NCBI GenBank assembly: GCA_963827685.1
Contig: CAWHBU010000001.1
Coordinates: 352,001-416,000 of the forward strand
Origin: an uncultured delta proteobacterium
GTDB taxonomy: Bacteria > Desulfobacterota > BSN033 > UBA1163
Direction of reading: 5' to 3'
DNA: 64,000 bases
Below the pieces are notes generated by a model. That model saw only the letters and a list, made by a program, of their open reading frames with translations, made no database searches and was not told where the DNA came from. Numbering within the stretch: the stretch's first letter is position 1; every line of letters begins with the position of its first letter. A program made the position numbers and the translations under genes. Positions 3,762 through 57,019 of this stretch are shown in pieces.

Positions 3762-4748
3762 CTATCTCTTGCAAGAGCTTGATTCTTGGATGATTTTCCC
3801 AAATCCTTTCAGTTTTTCCTCTTGTTCTCTCAGCAGAAGGTGAGATTCTTCGATTGAGATGGGTTTGAATCGGACTCGATTCCCAGGCTTTAGTTGGGCG
3901 ATCCTGGGTAAGTCCGTTGAGATGATCGTGGCAATCTTTGTATAACCTCCGGTGACCAACTCCGCTAAGATGATAATGGGTTTCCCGTCCCCAGGAACCT
4001 GAATCGCCCCTGAGATCAAGCCCTCTGAAATGATCGACTCCTCCACATCGGATCGTCTCTCGATCTTGGGACCTTCTAATCGAACTCCCATTCGGTCGCA
4101 TTGAGGAGTGACTTGATAGGGTGAGGAATAAAATGTTTGGGATCCTTTTTCTGTAAAGTGGTGATTCTGAGGTCCCGCAATTACCCTGAGAGGTGTTTCC
4201 TCCTCCAGAGAGGGGATCCAATCCCTTGGACATCGAAGACCCAACTTGTCAAGAGAAGCTGAGATATCAGGAGTATAAAGAATATCTCCTCGTCTCAACT
4301 TCCTACCTTCCAACCCACCAAAATTCCCTGAAAGATAGGTTGAGCAGCTCCCCATGATTTTTGGAACAACAAATCCTCCACTCACAGCCAGGTAAGCACG
4401 GCACCCTGTTTGGACCTTCTTGAAGGCGATGACATCGCCTTCTACCAGAAGATGGGTTCTCCACATCTCCAAGGGCTCCTCGTTTAATGCAGGAGAGAAA
4501 TCTCCACCCGTGATGGCAATGACAACCTCCCTCAGAGCCTTTATTTTCAAACCCATGAGTGTGGTCTCGAGGCCAGCCTCTTCTTCTCTGTTTCCAACCA
4601 ACAGGTTGCCAATTCTGAAAGAAGAGGTGTCCAGGGCTCCAGAGGGAGGGACCCCGAACTGACTGAAACCGTATCGACCCAGATCCTGAATCGTGGTTAG
4701 AATGCCAGACTCCAGGACCTCAAAGGCTGCAAGTTTCTTATCTTCCAA
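3762..4748 (-). CDS. pxpC: 5-oxoprolinase subunit C (allophanate hydrolase subunit 2 family)
   Basis: TTIQDLGR, GVPPSGALD, DRMGVRL, GAIQVPGDG, TGGY motifs; downstream of pxpA and pxpB. Start placed at TTG 4748 after a GAGG SD, because the longer ORF starts inside a repeat element. Confidence 0.9.
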   Translation of the reverse strand: MEDKKLAAFEVLESGILTTIQDLGRYGFSQFGVPPSGALDTSSFRIGNLLVGNREEEAGLETTLMGLKIKALREVVIAITGGDFSPALNEEPLEMWRTHLLVEGDVIAFKKVQTGCRAYLAVSGGFVVPKIMGSCSTYLSGNFGGLEGRKLRRGDILYTPDISASLDKLGLRCPRDWIPSLEEETPLRVIAGPQNHHFTEKGSQTFYSSPYQVTPQCDRMGVRLEGPKIERRSDVEESIISEGLISGAIQVPGDGKPIIILAELVTGGYTKIATIISTDLPRIAQLKPGNRVRFKPISIEESHLLLREQEEKLKGFGKIIQESSSCKR

Positions 4749-4786
4749 GTTTTCCTCGAATGAACCCGAATGTGGAACCGGAAAGG

Positions 4787-4952
4787 TCAAATGTCAATCC
4801 CGCCGAGGCGGGACCAAATGTCAAATGAATTATAAATGGCTCCATGTCAGAAATCTCTTCTTTAATCAACTTTGCCATTTGATCTTGGGATTTCATTTGA
4901 ACTTGATTCACCATCGGTTCATCACTTCGTACGCACTTTGACATTTGGCATT
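4787..4952. repeat. Heptamer-periodic inverted-repeat element with nested CCCGCCGAGGCGGG hairpin
   Basis: Left arm CAAATGT-CAA...CAAATGT-CAAATGA; right arm TTTGCCA-TTTGATC...TTTGACA-TTTGGCA. Confidence 0.65.
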
Positions 4953-4963
4953 ACTTCTTATCT

Positions 4964-5653
4964 CTATATTCTCCATTCCTTAAACTCCTTCTCGCTGATC
5001 GGATAGAATTGGACAAAGTCTCCCATTTGAAGCAGAGCCGGAGGATCTTTCTCGGGGTCGAACAGTTCCACCGGGGTTCGGCCGAGAATCTGCCACCCTC
5101 CCGGGCTCTCCGCAGAATAAATTCCTGTCTGTCTCTGTGCAATGGCCACAGAGCCTTTGGGAACGGATAGCCTTGGTGTTTTGAGCCGCGGGATCGCCAA
5201 TGCCTGAGGAAGTTCTCCCATGTAAGGAAATCCAGGCATAAAACCAATCATATAGATCAGATAAGGTTTGCTGCAATGGAGTTGGATCACTCCCTCGGGA
5301 GAGACCTGATGATACTTCGCCACCTCTTCCAAATCAGGACCATAGATACCACCATAAGCGACCGGGATGTGTGTCAACTTGGGCTCCGGAAGAGGAGTGT
5401 GCTGAAGCCCTTCTTCTATCCGGCTCAATCTTTTTTTTAGGTCTTCGAAGGGGAGAATCACCGGATTGTAAATGATGAGTAATGACCGGTAGGTCGGAAC
5501 GGTTTCAACGATCCCGTCCATGGCTTCAGCCTGGATGGAGAGAGCCATCCTTTTCACCTTCTCATTGATCTCGCGACTGATTTCGTCCCCGAATTCAAGG
5601 AGAAGACCACGATCACCCATCAGATAAAAATGTGTCTTAGGGTAGAGACCCAT
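4964..5653 (-). CDS. pxpB: 5-oxoprolinase subunit B (KipI / allophanate hydrolase subunit 1 family)
   Basis: GDRGLLLEFG, VPTYRSL, YGPDLEEVA, GFMPGFPY, SPGGWQILGRTP. Likely start is ATG 5653. Confidence 0.92.
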   Translation of the reverse strand: MGLYPKTHFYLMGDRGLLLEFGDEISREINEKVKRMALSIQAEAMDGIVETVPTYRSLLIIYNPVILPFEDLKKRLSRIEEGLQHTPLPEPKLTHIPVAYGGIYGPDLEEVAKYHQVSPEGVIQLHCSKPYLIYMIGFMPGFPYMGELPQALAIPRLKTPRLSVPKGSVAIAQRQTGIYSAESPGGWQILGRTPVELFDPEKDPPALLQMGDFVQFYPISEKEFKEWRI

Positions 5654-51928: not shown

Positions 51929-51973
51929 TTGACACTATAAACATATTGTATTATATTGTATTTCAAATTGTAT
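51929..51973 (+). promoter_or_regulatory. Sigma70 promoter overlapped by direct repeats
   Basis: TTGACA-17-TATATT; ATATTGTATT twice in tandem (51943-51962) plus a third ATTGTAT at 51967. Confidence 0.65.
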
Positions 51974-51986
51974 AGAGGGGGTTTCT

Positions 51987-52169
51987 TTGGCACAGAAAAA
52001 GGTTGCCCGTACCATTTACATTAAAGACGAACAAATGGAGGCCTTAAAGAGGTTATCTGAGAAGACCAAAGTCCCTCAGTCCGTCTATGTTAGGGAGGCT
52101 TTGGATATGCTCTTGGAAAAATATTCTGAACAACTGAAATTCGAATTTAAAGAGTATTTCAAAGGATAA
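51987..52169 (+). CDS. Ribbon-helix-helix DNA-binding protein, CdbA-like
   Basis: KKVARTIYI strand followed by two helices (EQMEALKRLSEKTKVP, YVREALDMLLEKY); matches the remembered Myxococcus CdbA pattern KK.STTIYI..EQ...LK.L...TKVP...Y.R...D..LEKY. Confidence 0.8.
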   Translation: MAQKKVARTIYIKDEQMEALKRLSEKTKVPQSVYVREALDMLLEKYSEQLKFEFKEYFKG

Positions 52170-52209: not shown

Positions 52210-52962
52210 GTGGATCGTTTCCGATTAAGTTACTTAAAATCAACAGAATTTGAAAGATTGGAGTTTGATGAATCTTTTTCATACAATGATGCCAGAAAAA
52301 CGACAAATCCCCCCTCTCTTTCTCCAGAATTCAATATGCCGGAGACTCTTTCCTCCGAAGCCATTCTAAAACAGGCGAAGGCTGATCTGAAGAATTCCGA
52401 TTCGAAGATAAGAATCTTGGCGATAAAATACTATTTGGAAAAATCTTATCCCTCCATTCCCCTGTCTCTTCTTCAGGAAATTTTATCTGATCGAGACCCG
52501 GATGTCAGAGCCGAAGCGCTCCGTTGCCTTATTAAATTTAGAAGCCCTATCGTTTCCCCTTTATTAAGAAAATATCTTAAGGATAGCGATCCAAGGGTCA
52601 GGATCGCTGTCCTCCGAGGAATGCTCCAATATCAAGAAAAAGTCGACCTAAACATCCTTCTTCAATCTTTGAGCGATGAATCTCCTTGGGTGAGACGGAA
52701 AGTGGCTACCGTATTAGGGTGGACACAAAGAGAGGGGGCCTTACCCATCCTGATAGAATTGTCAAAGGATCAGGACCCAAAGGTAAGAAGGGCAGCTCTT
52801 TTTTCTCTGGTCACCCTTTATCCTGATGAGAGTGAGGATCGTTTGATGGAGGCCATGACCGATTCCGATCCGGGTCTTCGAAAATGGGCGAAAACGACTT
52901 TAGAAAAAATAGCGGCTGGACCGTTGAAAAGAAAAACGGCTTCTCTTACAAAACGAGGTTGA
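52210..52962 (+). CDS. HEAT-repeat protein, in the position of PomY
   Basis: Repeats LSDRDPDVRAEAL, LKDSDPRVRIAVL, LSDESPWVRRKVA, SKDQDPKVRRAAL, MTDSDPGLRKWA. Confidence 0.85.
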   Translation: MDRFRLSYLKSTEFERLEFDESFSYNDARKTTNPPSLSPEFNMPETLSSEAILKQAKADLKNSDSKIRILAIKYYLEKSYPSIPLSLLQEILSDRDPDVRAEALRCLIKFRSPIVSPLLRKYLKDSDPRVRIAVLRGMLQYQEKVDLNILLQSLSDESPWVRRKVATVLGWTQREGALPILIELSKDQDPKVRRAALFSLVTLYPDESEDRLMEAMTDSDPGLRKWAKTTLEKIAAGPLKRKTASLTKRG

Positions 52963-52979: not shown

Positions 52980-53990
52980 ATGGTGACACGCTCATTACCC
53001 CTTATTCAAAGGGCTCAGATTCTCGGAGACGTCATCTACTCGCCGATGGCCTTTGCCAAGCTCCTCGGGATTTCTAAGCACGATCTCCTTGAGAAAGAGG
53101 CGAAAGGAATCCTTCCCCCTGCAAAGAGGGATTCCAATCAGGAACGCTATTATAAGCCAGAGGATGTCAGCAAGTATCGCGCCTACCTGGGACTTCCTTC
53201 CCCCCTCCCATCCATCCGCAAACAGCTCTTTCTCAACTTTAAAGGGGGAACAGGGAAGAGCACGATCTCCGCTTCTTATGGTTTTCGCCTTGCCCAGATG
53301 GGAGCCCGGACATTACTGATCGATTTAGATCCACAAGGCCATCTCACACAATGCCTAGGCCTCAACAGCCAACAGTTCCCCAAAACCCTGTTCCATGCCC
53401 TGATCGAGAAGGAAGAGATGGAAAAGGTCATCGTCAAGACGGATCTCCCCACATTGGATATAATCCCCTCGAACCTGAACCTCTCACCCGTAGAGCTCTC
53501 GCTCTTTTCCATGAATTCAAGAGAGTTCCGATTAAGGAGGCTGATCAGTTCTGTGGAGAAAAACTACGAACTGATTGTGATGGACGCCTCCCCCAGCATC
53601 GGGCTCTTAAACCTGAATGCGATCCTCGCCTCCAACGATCTCATCATCCCCGTCTTGGCCGATTTTCTTTCCTACCATGGGCTCAAGATTCTTTTCGAGA
53701 CCCTCTCCACGATCGAAGAGGATTTTTCATTTGTTTTTGAGAATATCTTCATCTTCCTGAACCGCTACAATGAGTCTCATCGAATCTGCAAACGTTCGAA
53801 GAAGGCGCTGGAGACCCACTATGACAAATACCTCCTCAGCACCGTGATCCGTCAAGATACCAAGATCGCAGAGGCAACGAGTCAAGGAAGCCCGATCTTC
53901 CTGTTCGCCCAATCGTCAAAGGGCGCGGCGGATATCCAGAGCCTGATCGATGAAATATTAGAACCGAAAGGAGCTGATCATGTCAGATGA
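52980..53990 (+). CDS. pomZ: ParA/MinD-family ATPase with N-terminal MerR-like HTH; PomZ-like
   Basis: Deviant Walker A in RKQLFLNFKGGTGKS; IDLDPQGH; PVLADFLSYHGLKILFET; SSKGAADIQ. These segments match Myxococcus PomZ as remembered. Confidence 0.8.
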   Translation: MVTRSLPLIQRAQILGDVIYSPMAFAKLLGISKHDLLEKEAKGILPPAKRDSNQERYYKPEDVSKYRAYLGLPSPLPSIRKQLFLNFKGGTGKSTISASYGFRLAQMGARTLLIDLDPQGHLTQCLGLNSQQFPKTLFHALIEKEEMEKVIVKTDLPTLDIIPSNLNLSPVELSLFSMNSREFRLRRLISSVEKNYELIVMDASPSIGLLNLNAILASNDLIIPVLADFLSYHGLKILFETLSTIEEDFSFVFENIFIFLNRYNESHRICKRSKKALETHYDKYLLSTVIRQDTKIAEATSQGSPIFLFAQSSKGAADIQSLIDEILEPKGADHVR

Positions 53991-54312
53991 ATTCACGAAC
54001 AACGTGGCACAAAAATTCCCCAACACACTGAATAAAGAGCCGATTGAAAGGCCTTGGGATGTTGCGGAAGCCCGTCCCCTCTCTCCTTTGAAGAAACTTG
54101 TGGAAGAATCCAAAAAGGATGATTTGACCGAACGGATCGATACGCTTTATTCTGAGCTTCGTTCCTCTTTGACGGTGCGGTCTGCGCTGGAATTCGATCT
54201 GAAGAAGGCCAATCGAATTCTTGAAGAGGTGAACCGGGTCAAAGCAGAAGTCGAAAAGATTGTCGAGATGTTGAGGGTGATGGATGGATACATGAAAGAA
54301 CGAATCAAGTAA
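53980..54312 (+). CDS. Short coiled-coil protein with a PomX-like N-terminal peptide
   Basis: N-terminus FTNNVAQKFP; heptad-rich C-terminal half; overlaps the end of the ParA gene. Confidence 0.7.
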   Translation: MSDEFTNNVAQKFPNTLNKEPIERPWDVAEARPLSPLKKLVEESKKDDLTERIDTLYSELRSSLTVRSALEFDLKKANRILEEVNRVKAEVEKIVEMLRVMDGYMKERIK

Positions 54313-54386
54313 TCCCCTTCCCTCCCTTTCCCGGAGACGGGGAAAGAAGGAATGAGGGAGGGTCGAATGGCTGAGGAGGGTATAGG

Positions 54387-55202
54387 ATGAAACCAAGAAG
54401 TCAGGTGATGACGGCCGATGGATTCGATACGAATGTTGCCGAAAAGATGCCGAAGATTAGAAAGCTGGAAGAACCCCTTCCCTCACCCCTGGAAATGGAA
54501 CCCCAGTTACTGGAAGAAGATTATCACGAGCCTGTACCAGAAATGAGAATTCCGGAGAAGCAGGTAGAGAGGAAGATGATCTTCGAATCTCCAAAGAAAG
54601 GGATCGAGACCGAACAGAGTCTGGACGTCCTGAAACTGATCGAAGACCTTCATGCTCAGCTCCTTGCCTCGGCCCAGACCAAGAGGGCTCTGGAGATGGA
54701 CCTGGCTTCTTACAAGAAGAGCATCCATCAATTGGCCCAAGATAATCAAGAATTACGTCGCCAGTGGGAAGCCCTGAGCAGAGAGCATCAGAGGCTCAAA
54801 GAGTTGCAGTCCGAATCGATCTATCTTCAAGAGGAGAATGCAGACGCCTTGGAGCGAATCAAAGAATTTCAACAGGAATTGAGAGAGATGAGGGAAGCCT
54901 TGGCCAAAGCCACTCAGGAAAGAGAGGAAGCCTTCGATCGAATTCGTGATCTGGAATCCCAGATGGAACAGAACGAGGTGGTTAAAATCAAAGGAAAGTT
55001 AAAGGAGAGAGAAGCCTCCGTTTTCTCTGAGGAGAACCGGGAACTCCAATCCAAACTGGAGGAGGCCCTCACCCAGAATAGGGATCTGGAGAAAAAGTAC
55101 GAAACCTTGAAAAAATCCTTTAATGAAGTGAGAGAATCTCTCACCTTTTTAAGGGATTCCTGCAAAGTAAATTACTACAACCTATCGGAGACCCCTGAAT
55201 AA
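54387..55202 (+). CDS. Long coiled-coil protein, PomX-like
   Basis: N-terminus FDTNVAEKMPKIRKL, then a Pro/Glu-rich linker and a long uninterrupted coiled coil. Confidence 0.75.
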   Translation: MKPRSQVMTADGFDTNVAEKMPKIRKLEEPLPSPLEMEPQLLEEDYHEPVPEMRIPEKQVERKMIFESPKKGIETEQSLDVLKLIEDLHAQLLASAQTKRALEMDLASYKKSIHQLAQDNQELRRQWEALSREHQRLKELQSESIYLQEENADALERIKEFQQELREMREALAKATQEREEAFDRIRDLESQMEQNEVVKIKGKLKEREASVFSEENRELQSKLEEALTQNRDLEKKYETLKKSFNEVRESLTFLRDSCKVNYYNLSETPE

Positions 55203-55330: not shown

Positions 55331-57019
55331 TTGAAAATTCGATTGATCGATCCAGCCTATGAGCACCCTTACATCAGCCACTCGCAAAAGGTAATTAAGA
55401 ACATCTGGTTTGCCCGCCTCACGCTGACCGCGTTGGCTGCACTCACCCCCTCGAATATCGAAGTGAATATCACGGATGAGAATGTCGAGCCCATTGACTT
55501 TGAAGAGGAGGTGGATCTGGTCGGTGTGACCGGAATGGTGATGCATGCTCCAAGGGCTTACGAGATCGCACAGAGGTTTCGTCAGAGAGAGATCCCGGTC
55601 GTCATGGGCGGACCTCATGCCTCAAGCCTTCCCCTCGAAGCCAAGCAGCATGTGGATGCGGTGGTCATCGGTGAAGCGGAGAATGTCTGGGGAGGATTGA
55701 TTGAAGATTTTAAGAAGGGATGCCTCAAACCTTTCTATCAGGCGGAGTCCTTCTGCTCGATGGAAAGACTCCCCTTTCCGAGGCTTGATCTCCTTCATAA
55801 AGATGCCTACATGACAATCAACTGTGTCCAAACGACCCGGGGTTGTCCTCACCAATGTGATTTTTGTCATGTCACGCATTTTTTTGGAAAGACTTATCGC
55901 TGTCGGCCGGTGGATGAAGTGATTGAAGAGGTGAAGCGGTTAGAAGGGGATTTTCTTGTTTTCATCGATGACAATATCGCTGGAAACCCCCGCTATGCCA
56001 AAGAGCTCTTTACCCGATTGAAGCCCCTCAAAAAGAAATGGGCCAGCCAGGCCAGTATGACCCTGACCCGGGACCCCGAACTCCTGAGACTTGCTGCGGA
56101 GAGCGGATGTGTCTCTTTGTTCATCGGGGTCGAATCCCTCTCTTCGGAAAACTTGAAGGATGTGAATAAAAGCTTTAATCAAGTCCACCAATTTGAGGAA
56201 GCCATGAAAGCCGTTCACGACCACGACATCTTGATCGTGGCCGGGTTCATTTTTGGATTGGATCATGATGATGAAGGGGTCTTTGAAAGGACGCTTCGAT
56301 TTTGTGAACGGAATCGAATTGAATTGCCCAGTTTCTTCATTCTCACCCCCTTACCCGGGACGGCTTTATTCCAAAGGATGGAGTCAGAGGGCAGGCTCCT
56401 GCATAAAGATTGGAGTCAATATAATGGAGCCACAGTTGTTTTCAAGCCGAGATTGATGACCGAAGAGACGCTTCAGCGCGGATTTAATTGGGCATGCAAA
56501 GAGGGATATTCCTGGGGTTCCATCTTTAAAAGGGTTTGCCATCCCCAACAACGATTCGTCACTCGAGTCCTTTCGAATATCGCCTACCGAAGCATTGCGC
56601 AGAGGACACCGGAGGGTTATCTTCCAAGCCTTTCACGAATTTTGCAGAGGATGAATGATACCATCCCTCTCCACAATACTCGGGACTTGATTCAGCGGGT
56701 GGGGGAGAAAATTGCCGAGAGGAAACTTCGGATTGGTCAAAAAGCCGCCGATACGCTCAAACTCTATTCTATTTATAACGAGCGGGTTAGAACCCTGTTC
56801 GTCAGACTCGAGGGATCGATGGATCGGGAGGGAGCGAAAGAGTTGGTAGAGAGGCTTAAAGGAGTTTTACATGTAAAGATCCAGAAAGTCATCCTTGACT
56901 TCAAAGATGTTGGAGCTTTTTCCTCAGAGGCGATCTCCCTGCTCTCCAGAAAAGGTCTTCTTCAGACAGAAGAAGGAAAACTCTGGATCGCTGTGAACCC
57001 ACCGGGCATCCTTGGTTAG
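55331..57019 (+). CDS. B12-binding radical SAM protein with C-terminal STAS-like domain
   Basis: VVMGGPHAS, RGCPHQCDFC, FIDDN, IGVES, LTPLPGT; tail VRLEGSMD...VILDFKDVGAFSSEAISLL. Confidence 0.88.
   Translation: MKIRLIDPAYEHPYISHSQKVIKNIWFARLTLTALAALTPSNIEVNITDENVEPIDFEEEVDLVGVTGMVMHAPRAYEIAQRFRQREIPVVMGGPHASSLPLEAKQHVDAVVIGEAENVWGGLIEDFKKGCLKPFYQAESFCSMERLPFPRLDLLHKDAYMTINCVQTTRGCPHQCDFCHVTHFFGKTYRCRPVDEVIEEVKRLEGDFLVFIDDNIAGNPRYAKELFTRLKPLKKKWASQASMTLTRDPELLRLAAESGCVSLFIGVESLSSENLKDVNKSFNQVHQFEEAMKAVHDHDILIVAGFIFGLDHDDEGVFERTLRFCERNRIELPSFFILTPLPGTALFQRMESEGRLLHKDWSQYNGATVVFKPRLMTEETLQRGFNWACKEGYSWGSIFKRVCHPQQRFVTRVLSNIAYRSIAQRTPEGYLPSLSRILQRMNDTIPLHNTRDLIQRVGEKIAERKLRIGQKAADTLKLYSIYNERVRTLFVRLEGSMDREGAKELVERLKGVLHVKIQKVILDFKDVGAFSSEAISLLSRKGLLQTEEGKLWIAVNPPGILG

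Follow-up and report, generated by a model that had tools for sequence, protein, structure and literature searches.

A candidate PomXYZ-type positioning locus with two PomX-like paralogs in an uncultured lineage of Thermodesulfobacteriota

What is the use of two related coiled-coil proteins beside a single ParA/MinD-type ATPase? The question is raised by a stretch of 64,000 nucleotides (nt) of an uncultured bacterium (the window: positions 352,001 to 416,000 of contig CAWHBU010000001.1, assembly GCA_963827685.1), in which five plus-strand genes form a tight unit. They encode a ribbon-helix-helix (RHH) protein, a HEAT-repeat protein, a ParA/MinD ATPase, a short PomX-like protein and a long PomX-like protein. 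The window genome (G000; 5.23 Mb, 94.5% complete, 8% contamination) is a member of the family here designated f1, and the lineage carrying the locus is an uncultured one of the Thermodesulfobacteriota from sediments and soils. On balance we favor the reading that the locus encodes a PomXYZ-type nucleoid-based positioning system composed of a HEAT-only PomY-like protein, a PomZ ortholog and a duplicated PomX, the short copy of which would bind the ATPase, activate it weakly or not at all and join the scaffold.

The ATPase carries the strongest evidence of kinship. The Myxococcus xanthus locus used for comparison (L012) was located in the public genome by a scan for the pomX primer printed in eLife 2021. 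The ATPase and M. xanthus PomZ are 49% identical over 309 columns (expectation value, E, 4e-108), that is, over the full length including the N-terminal extension, and are reciprocal best matches (316 versus 127 bits, and 318 versus 143 bits in the reverse direction). In a phylogenetic tree both fell within a PomZ-like clade (100/99 support) separate from the Soj-like ParA proteins of the two genomes. The members of this clade from Thermodesulfobacteriota (81/92) and those from Myxococcota (93/77) were sister groups, neither being nested within the other. The match of the ATPase to the MinD model was 39 bits, the cut-off being 212.9. The deviant Walker A motif KGGTGK, the D-L-D motif and a Lys aligned with the PomZ DNA-binding Lys are identical to those of PomZ in the pairwise alignment and invariant in 28 of 28 rows of alignment A4. 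The start codon at 52980 was chosen from relatives that begin M-x-T-x-S-L-P-L-I-Q. The N-terminal extension (52980-53200) aligns with the PomZ N-terminus and gives a weak, below cut-off match to a MerR-type helix-turn-helix (HTH) model (E 3.7e-4).

Gene order agrees as well. The M. xanthus order pomY, pomZ, pomX is that of the HEAT, ATPase and PomX-like genes, with pomY or its HEAT counterpart upstream of the ATPase gene and pomX or the long PomX-like gene downstream of it in both organisms. The best M. xanthus match of the HEAT protein lies in PomY (E 9.4e-7), and the best match of the PomY HEAT region (residues 221-428) in the window genome is the segment 52390-52908 (E 1.6e-6; the next is 1.7e-3). 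These reciprocal scores are weak and HEAT repeats are generic, so that the assignment leans partly on gene order. PomY has about 682-697 residues, whereas the HEAT protein has 250 and has no room for either the N-terminal coiled coil of PomY or its C-terminal region (residues 496-682). On these sequence grounds we class the HEAT protein as PomY-like and not as a full PomY.

The long copy was matched to PomX through its coiled-coil domain and its N-terminal peptide. A long-copy profile and a profile of 18 myxobacterial PomX sequences aligned collinearly in 172 columns (93.6%, E 2e-7), from the beginning of the coiled coil to the C-terminus. Residues 69-253 of the long copy lie on residues 202-390 of PomX, whose C-terminal coiled-coil domain comprises residues 214-404. 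We considered whether this match was an artefact of composition, an explanation against which the controls speak: the profile of PomY, which also has a coiled coil, gave 4.8%, and two single-sequence controls gave 1.2 and 0.1%. The coiled-coil likeness is taken as supportive, although not decisive alone. As in the long copy, a disordered, acidic and Pro-rich linker precedes the C-terminal coiled coil of M. xanthus PomX, the overall lengths being 271 and 404 residues, respectively. The AlphaFold2 (AF2) model of the long copy has 72 disordered residues that carry the peptide followed by one helix of about 190 residues (73-263), an arrangement that agrees with the proposal of a preliminary description of this DNA that the long copy would be a scaffold-type counterpart of PomX. 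That description had also called the pair PomX-like, an identity borne out by PomZ orthology, the reciprocal HEAT/PomY match, gene order and the collinear alignment of the long copy with the C-terminal domain of PomX. The short copy has only about 45 residues of the coiled-coil domain and matched PomX at 15.5%; a relationship of the short copy to PomY was ruled out (0.2%).

The two PomX-like open reading frames lie where they had been placed (53980-54312 for 110 residues and 54387-55202 for 271), and BLASTP pairs exactly the strings that had been quoted as alike, residues 5-18 and 52-74 of the short copy with residues 13-26 and 84-106 of the long copy. The two proteins are 25% identical over 131 columns (E 2e-4 in a single comparison). 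Profiles built from 14 short and 21 long homologs were aligned by hhalign at 94.2% (E 1.1e-7), with residues 3-92 of the short copy on residues 10-121 of the long copy. The agreement of BLASTP with the profile-profile comparison upholds the earlier suggestion that the pair arose by duplication. When the 5.23 Mb genome was translated in all six frames (10,457,192 residues), each of the two genes gave one exact match to F..NVA.K.P and no other match was present. As judged from these alignments, the short and long genes are paralogs.

The shorter of the two proteins is truncated and retains the N-terminal peptide, a linker and the first ~45 coiled-coil residues, after which it has a C-terminal helix of its own. 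The homologous segment (short residues 48-92, long residues 80-121) is the start of the coiled coil. In the AF2 model of the short copy residues 3-12 are helical, residues 17-35 are disordered and two further helices span residues 36-63 and 66-109, the last modelled at high confidence. Searches of both copies against Pfam and NCBIfam gave sub-threshold coiled-coil matches only.

The N-terminal peptide is where the copies differ most instructively. The PomX peptide as quoted in the preliminary description corresponds to residues 5-17 of the peptide given in the ATPase assay section of eLife 2021, and in that paper K13 and R15 of PomX are reported to be required for activation of the PomZ ATPase. 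Relative to the conserved Pro (P), R15 is the residue at P+1 and K13 that at P-1. Peptides from 18 PomX proteins, 21 long copies and 15 short copies were compared ungapped and anchored on the Phe, which is residue 5 in M. xanthus PomX and residue 13 in the long copy of the window. All 18 PomX proteins read F-[DE]-x-N-[VI]-[SP]-[RK]-x-[KR]-P-[RK]-x-[RK], with basic residues at P-3, P-1, P+1 and P+3. The long copies read F-[DE]-x-[SNI]-[VI]-A-x-[KR]-M-P and have basic residues at P-2 (21/21), P+1 (19/21), P+3 (17/21) and P+4 (18/21). The short copies read F-T-N-N-V-A-Q-K-F-P-N-T, and their basic residues are at P-2 (14/15) and P+5 (13/15), with none at P+1 or P+3 (0/15 at each). The Phe, the N/S at +3, the V/I at +4 and the Pro at +9 are common to all 18 PomX proteins, all 21 long copies and 14 of the 15 short copies.

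The peptide of the long copy in the window therefore fits F-[DE]-x-N-[VI]-x-x-x-x-P-[RK]-x-[RK], the pattern of 18/18 myxobacterial PomX proteins, and shares with M. xanthus PomX both the spacing of F, N, V and P and the basic residues after the Pro. The two differ in the basic residues before the Pro, which are at P-1 and P-3 in PomX and at P-2 in the long copy. In the short copies P+1 is Asn in 15 of 15 and P-1 is Phe, the latter position being Met in all 21 long copies. The same held among the 120 closest cluster representatives of each copy: the long copies had K/R at P+1 in 119 and at P+3 in 120, whereas the short copies had Asn at P+1 in 118. The earlier statement that only the long copy retains basic residues after the Pro was thus correct (P+1 in 19/21 long versus 0/15 short copies), and we read the alignments as retention of the R15 counterpart by the long copy and its loss from the short copy. 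The short copy does keep the basic residue at P-2, the one basic position common to the non-myxobacterial copies.

Ten residues past the Pro, the short copy has the motif RPWDV, which was present in 120 of 120 close representatives and was not found in the alignment of f1 long copies. The form [KR]PW[DN]V together with basic residues after the peptide occurs in the single-copy long proteins of family f43 (three genomes) and also in the distant long proteins P0258 and P0259, which were found with the short-copy profile. Because [KR]PW[DN]V sits beside basic residues in these proteins, and the f1 long copy lacks the motif, it is likely that a single ancestral protein combined all three elements (peptide, basic patch and RPWDV). 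Once the gene had been duplicated, the basic patch appears to have stayed with the long copy and RPWDV with the short copy, the features having been divided rather than one copy having decayed.

The short copy is under strong constraint. Identity to the window copy was 65-85% for the short copy and 49-73% for the long copy, and was higher for the short copy in 13/13 loci having both. The identity range of the short copy is near that of the ATPase (78-87% among f1 rows), and its mean column identity was 78%. The N-terminal 28 residues are the best conserved, F5, V9, A10, Q11, F13, P14, N15, T16, P25, W26, D27 and V28 being invariant in 14 of 14 sequences. The overlap of the ATPase stop codon with the short-copy start codon recurs in relatives.

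In the order, which consists of the single family f1, the short copy was found in 47 of 55 genomes; in G054, G016 and G007 either the short gene or the ATPase gene is missing only through a contig end. The ATPase (E <=1e-60) was found in 49 of the 68 genomes of the class, all of them f1 (48/54 other f1 genomes, with 0/8 and 0/5 in two other families), and in 14 of 301 genomes of the phylum sample, which adds families f4, f8 and f43. In G058 (f4) a short copy accompanies a long one, whereas G062 (f8) has a single PomX-like protein of 238 residues. A quick ATPase tree gave (f43,((f8,f4),f1)), with Shimodaira-Hasegawa-like approximate likelihood ratio test (SH-aLRT) values of 87-99. With sampling this thin, the tree suggests that the duplication predates the f1/f4 split and was followed by loss in G062. 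The short-copy family comprises 19 clusters (E <=0.001) among 1.84 billion representatives. PomZ was found in 89 of 201 sampled Myxococcota genomes, a count that includes the unpublished genome G542, which entered no other result. A second PomX copy between pomZ and pomX, the place of the 110-residue paralog here, was seen in none of 18 myxobacterial loci with a recognised PomX (17 of 20 fetched regions plus L012); in the remaining three regions (L077, L079 and L081) no PomX was found by the pattern used. In family f43 the PomX-like gene is followed, with an overlap of a few bases, by a gene encoding a helical protein of 77-80 residues that lacks the N-terminal peptide (L045 5256-5498; L047, oriented, 4731-4964). 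This protein was ruled out as a relative of the short copy (2.1%).

The scheme that we infer, from ATPase binding and stimulation through co-assembly to a role in cell division, would run as follows. By homology, the ATP-bound dimer of the PomZ-like ATPase would bind the nucleoid, and the ~190-residue coiled coil of the long copy would build a scaffold. The long-copy peptide (F-D-x-N-V-A-E-K-M-P-K-x-R-K) would dock on the interface of the ATP-bound dimer and stimulate the ATPase in the manner of the PomX peptide of Myxococcus, which a 2025 preprint models at a MinE-like site with K13 and R15 facing PomZ. The short copy, presumably made together with the ATPase by way of the overlapping stop and start codons, keeps the putative docking core, RPWDV and the first coiled-coil segment, and its R15 counterpart is gone. 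It would be a second partner of the ATPase that occupies the same site with weak or no activation and that joins the long-copy scaffold by its homologous helix, thereby tuning the duration of nucleoid tethering. It is possible, though somewhat unlikely, that the paralogs constitute a natural separation of function, in which two tasks, docking by way of the F-x-x-N-V-A-x-K-x-P core and RPWDV and activation by way of the basic residues that follow the Pro, came to be divided between them. The short copy would then serve as the second regulator of the ATPase, a part played in Myxococcus by the C-terminal region of PomY. A predicted complex of the ATPase dimer with ATP, Mg and residues 1-45 of the short copy (score 0.00; mark 0.32) speaks neither for nor against binding.

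No MinC, MinE or MinD above cut-off was found in the window genome (94.5% complete) and, to our knowledge, M. xanthus also lacks Min. In view of these negatives, a role of the locus in placing the division site is plausible.

Several findings weigh against this scheme. By BLASTP the long copy matched PomX at E 0.006, and its comparison with a single PomX sequence was weak (15.7%) and out of order. PomX K13 (P-1) has no counterpart in either copy, K/R being found at P-2 instead. The sole PomX-like protein of G062 reads M-P-T-V-G-S-K, without basic residues at P+1 or P+3 and with spacing as in the short copy, and the long copy of G058 lacks a basic residue at P+1. Because of these two proteins, the basic residues after the Pro may not decide activation in this clade, and because the single-copy relative G062 also lacks them it is unsafe to say that the short copy cannot activate. 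The preliminary description had suggested that the short copy may cap filaments or compete, a proposal weakened by the G062 protein and by the basic residue that the short copy retains at P-2. In G036 (~96% complete) the ATPase and long genes are intact, whereas the short gene is a 34-codon remnant between them (L043 4421-4525, beginning M-S-D-E-F-T), and the rest of that genome yielded no short copy. As G036 holds only this remnant, the short copy can be lost. Finally, of PomY the HEAT protein has neither the coiled coil (residues 5-106) nor the largely disordered region nor the globular end, parts to which a preprint assigns PomY self-interaction, action on PomZ through ATPase activation, and the formation of condensates. 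Since these parts are missing, the cargo need not be the division ring.

Some of the same observations can be accommodated by supposing that both copies are true ATPase activators, the PomX duplication having replaced the C-terminal activator of PomY. In this case the long copy would make contact by its basic patch and the short copy by RPWDV and the Lys at P-2. In Myxococcus, PomZ is activated both by PomX and by PomY; a preprint maps the activating region of PomY to its C-terminal residues 496-682, beyond the HEAT domain, a region that the 250-residue HEAT protein does not have. The K/R at P-2 in 14/15 short and 21/21 long copies would suit such a role. So would G062, whose only copy lacks basic residues at P+1 and P+3, yet should be the activator of that organism, as would a conservation of the short copy that nearly equals that of the ATPase. 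However, the single-copy families f8 and f43 also have HEAT-only proteins (218-234 residues) and no short paralog; because these lineages manage with a HEAT-only protein and a single copy, a second peptide-bearing protein is not required. Moreover, the counterpart of Arg15, which is essential in PomX, is found in 0/15 short copies. We consider the proposal of two true activators doubtful.

The short copy might instead act on the scaffold and not on the ATPase, by capping, nucleating or limiting the long-copy filaments or by linking them to the HEAT protein, its N-terminal peptide being a relic or directed at another partner. The segment shared by the two copies is the start of the coiled coil, and the confidently modelled helix 66-109 would lend itself to such contacts. 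A relic would hardly have its N-terminal 28 residues as the best conserved part (12 invariant in 14/14), and the partner to which the short gene is coupled is the gene of the ATPase, not the long gene, so we regard a purely scaffold-directed protein as quite improbable. More distant still is plasmid-type DNA partition, with the RHH protein as a ParG-like centromere binder, the ATPase as a ParA with an N-terminal HTH and the coiled-coil proteins as accessories. An RHH gene does head the operon, and among NCBIfam models plasmid partition RepA matches the ATPase best, but the score of 106.5 bits is far under the family cut-off of 348. In addition, the ATPase is the reciprocal best match of PomZ, the locus is chromosomal and family-wide (48/54 other f1 genomes have the ATPase), and no RHH gene was seen in the G062 or f43 loci. 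We give partition next to no credence. The reading of the locus as a PomXYZ-type positioning system with a duplicated PomX is the one we retain.

In its logic the proposed system resembles MinE, ParB/Spo0J, SopB and McdB, each of which acts on a ParA/MinD ATPase by a short N-terminal peptide with essential basic residues joined to a multimerising domain; the likeness is one of logic, with no sequence relationship shown. We know of none of these that exists as a paralog pair sharing one peptide beside the ATPase. In the open literature searched we found no report of PomXYZ outside the myxobacteria, including in Desulfobacterota, subscription papers (among them Schumacher et al. 2017) and supplementary alignments being outside the scope of the search. 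What is new here is that the two coiled-coil genes are paralogs, that their peptides match that of PomX, that the basic patch and RPWDV are divided between them, and that natural loss variants occur. This gene trio occurs here in another phylum, with PomZ-like ATPases that form a sister clade, and it is a candidate for division-site placement in bacteria that showed no Min genes. The set of four proteins (250 + 336 + 110 + 271 residues) is small enough for rebuilding in vitro. The paralog pair supplies natural peptide variants that differ in the presence of the Arg15 counterpart and of RPWDV, and a genome in which the short copy is deleted and the single-copy lineages serve as natural controls. 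Since such variants and controls exist, docking and activating residues can be tested directly, four peptides and one ATPase being sufficient. Should the separation of function prove true, two-regulator control of a single ParA-type ATPase would have arisen twice, by separate routes, and PomY would need no more than its HEAT domain.

The preliminary description had further proposed that a hairpin at about 54314-54362, between the two PomX-like genes, sets their ratio, and this part did not hold. The segment 54300-54400 folds at -31.8 kcal/mol, but a fold at least this stable was obtained with 44 of 200 dinucleotide shuffles (z -0.70). In a comparison of 15 related loci, spacer length, counted from the stop codon through the start codon, ranged over 36-101 nt and no stem was conserved. 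The hairpin was rejected as a regulator, being neither significant relative to the shuffles nor conserved. What the spacers have in common is a strong ribosome-binding site ahead of the long gene.

Table 1 Features of the locus, in window coordinates (aa, amino acids)
Feature	Position	Strand	Remarks
Promoter-like site	51929..51957	+	TTGACA, 17 nt, TATATT; 11/12 positions; consensus scan only; ahead of the first gene of the operon
RHH protein, 60 aa, first gene of the operon	51987..52169	+	Pfam RHH_3, E 6.1e-18
HEAT-repeat protein, 250 aa, PomY-like	52210..52962	+	Pfam HEAT_2, E 9.1e-44; HEAT repeats at residues 58-235
PomZ-like ParA/MinD ATPase, 336 aa, with N-terminal extension	52980..53990	+	PomZ orthology
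Short PomX-like paralog, 110 aa	53980..54312	+	ATG overlaps ATPase stop by 11 nt
N-terminal peptide of short copy, residues 5-14, F-T-N-N-V-A-Q-K-F-P, then N-T-L-N-K	53992..54021	+	Motif and alignments
RPWDV motif of short copy, residues 24-28	54049..54063	+	Conserved in close representatives
Spacer, 74 nt	54313..54386	+	Purine/pyrimidine stem-loop at ~54314-54362; GAGGAGG ribosome-binding site of long gene
Long PomX-like protein, 271 aa	54387..55202	+	PomX profile match
N-terminal peptide of long copy, residues 13-26, F-D-T-N-V-A-E-K-M-P-K-I-R-K	54423..54464	+	Basic residues after Pro
Coiled-coil domain of long copy, residues 73-263	54603..55175	+	Predicted single continuous helix, AF2 model on alignment A1, predicted local distance difference test (pLDDT) >90

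On the plus strand, the site scan found no terminator-like site between the promoter-like site (51929) and 55128. The RHH gene lies directly 5' of the HEAT gene in all seven f1 loci displayed, and its product may be a regulator or a DNA-binding adaptor. The f1 HEAT proteins start with a basic peptide, [DES]-x-F-R-L-[ILVS]-Y-L-K-S, in 8/8 loci (window 52210-52245; L043, L050, L053, L054, L056, L057 and L059), and a linker of roughly 50 residues comes next; the peptide was not present in the HEAT proteins of G062 or f43. It could be a third peptide directed at the ATPase. Downstream (3') of the long gene, positions 55331-57019 encode a B12-binding radical S-adenosylmethionine (SAM) enzyme with a C-terminal STAS domain. 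This gene is absent from L053 and L054, is also present in L050, L056, L057 and L059, and is probably a neighbor rather than a part of the system.

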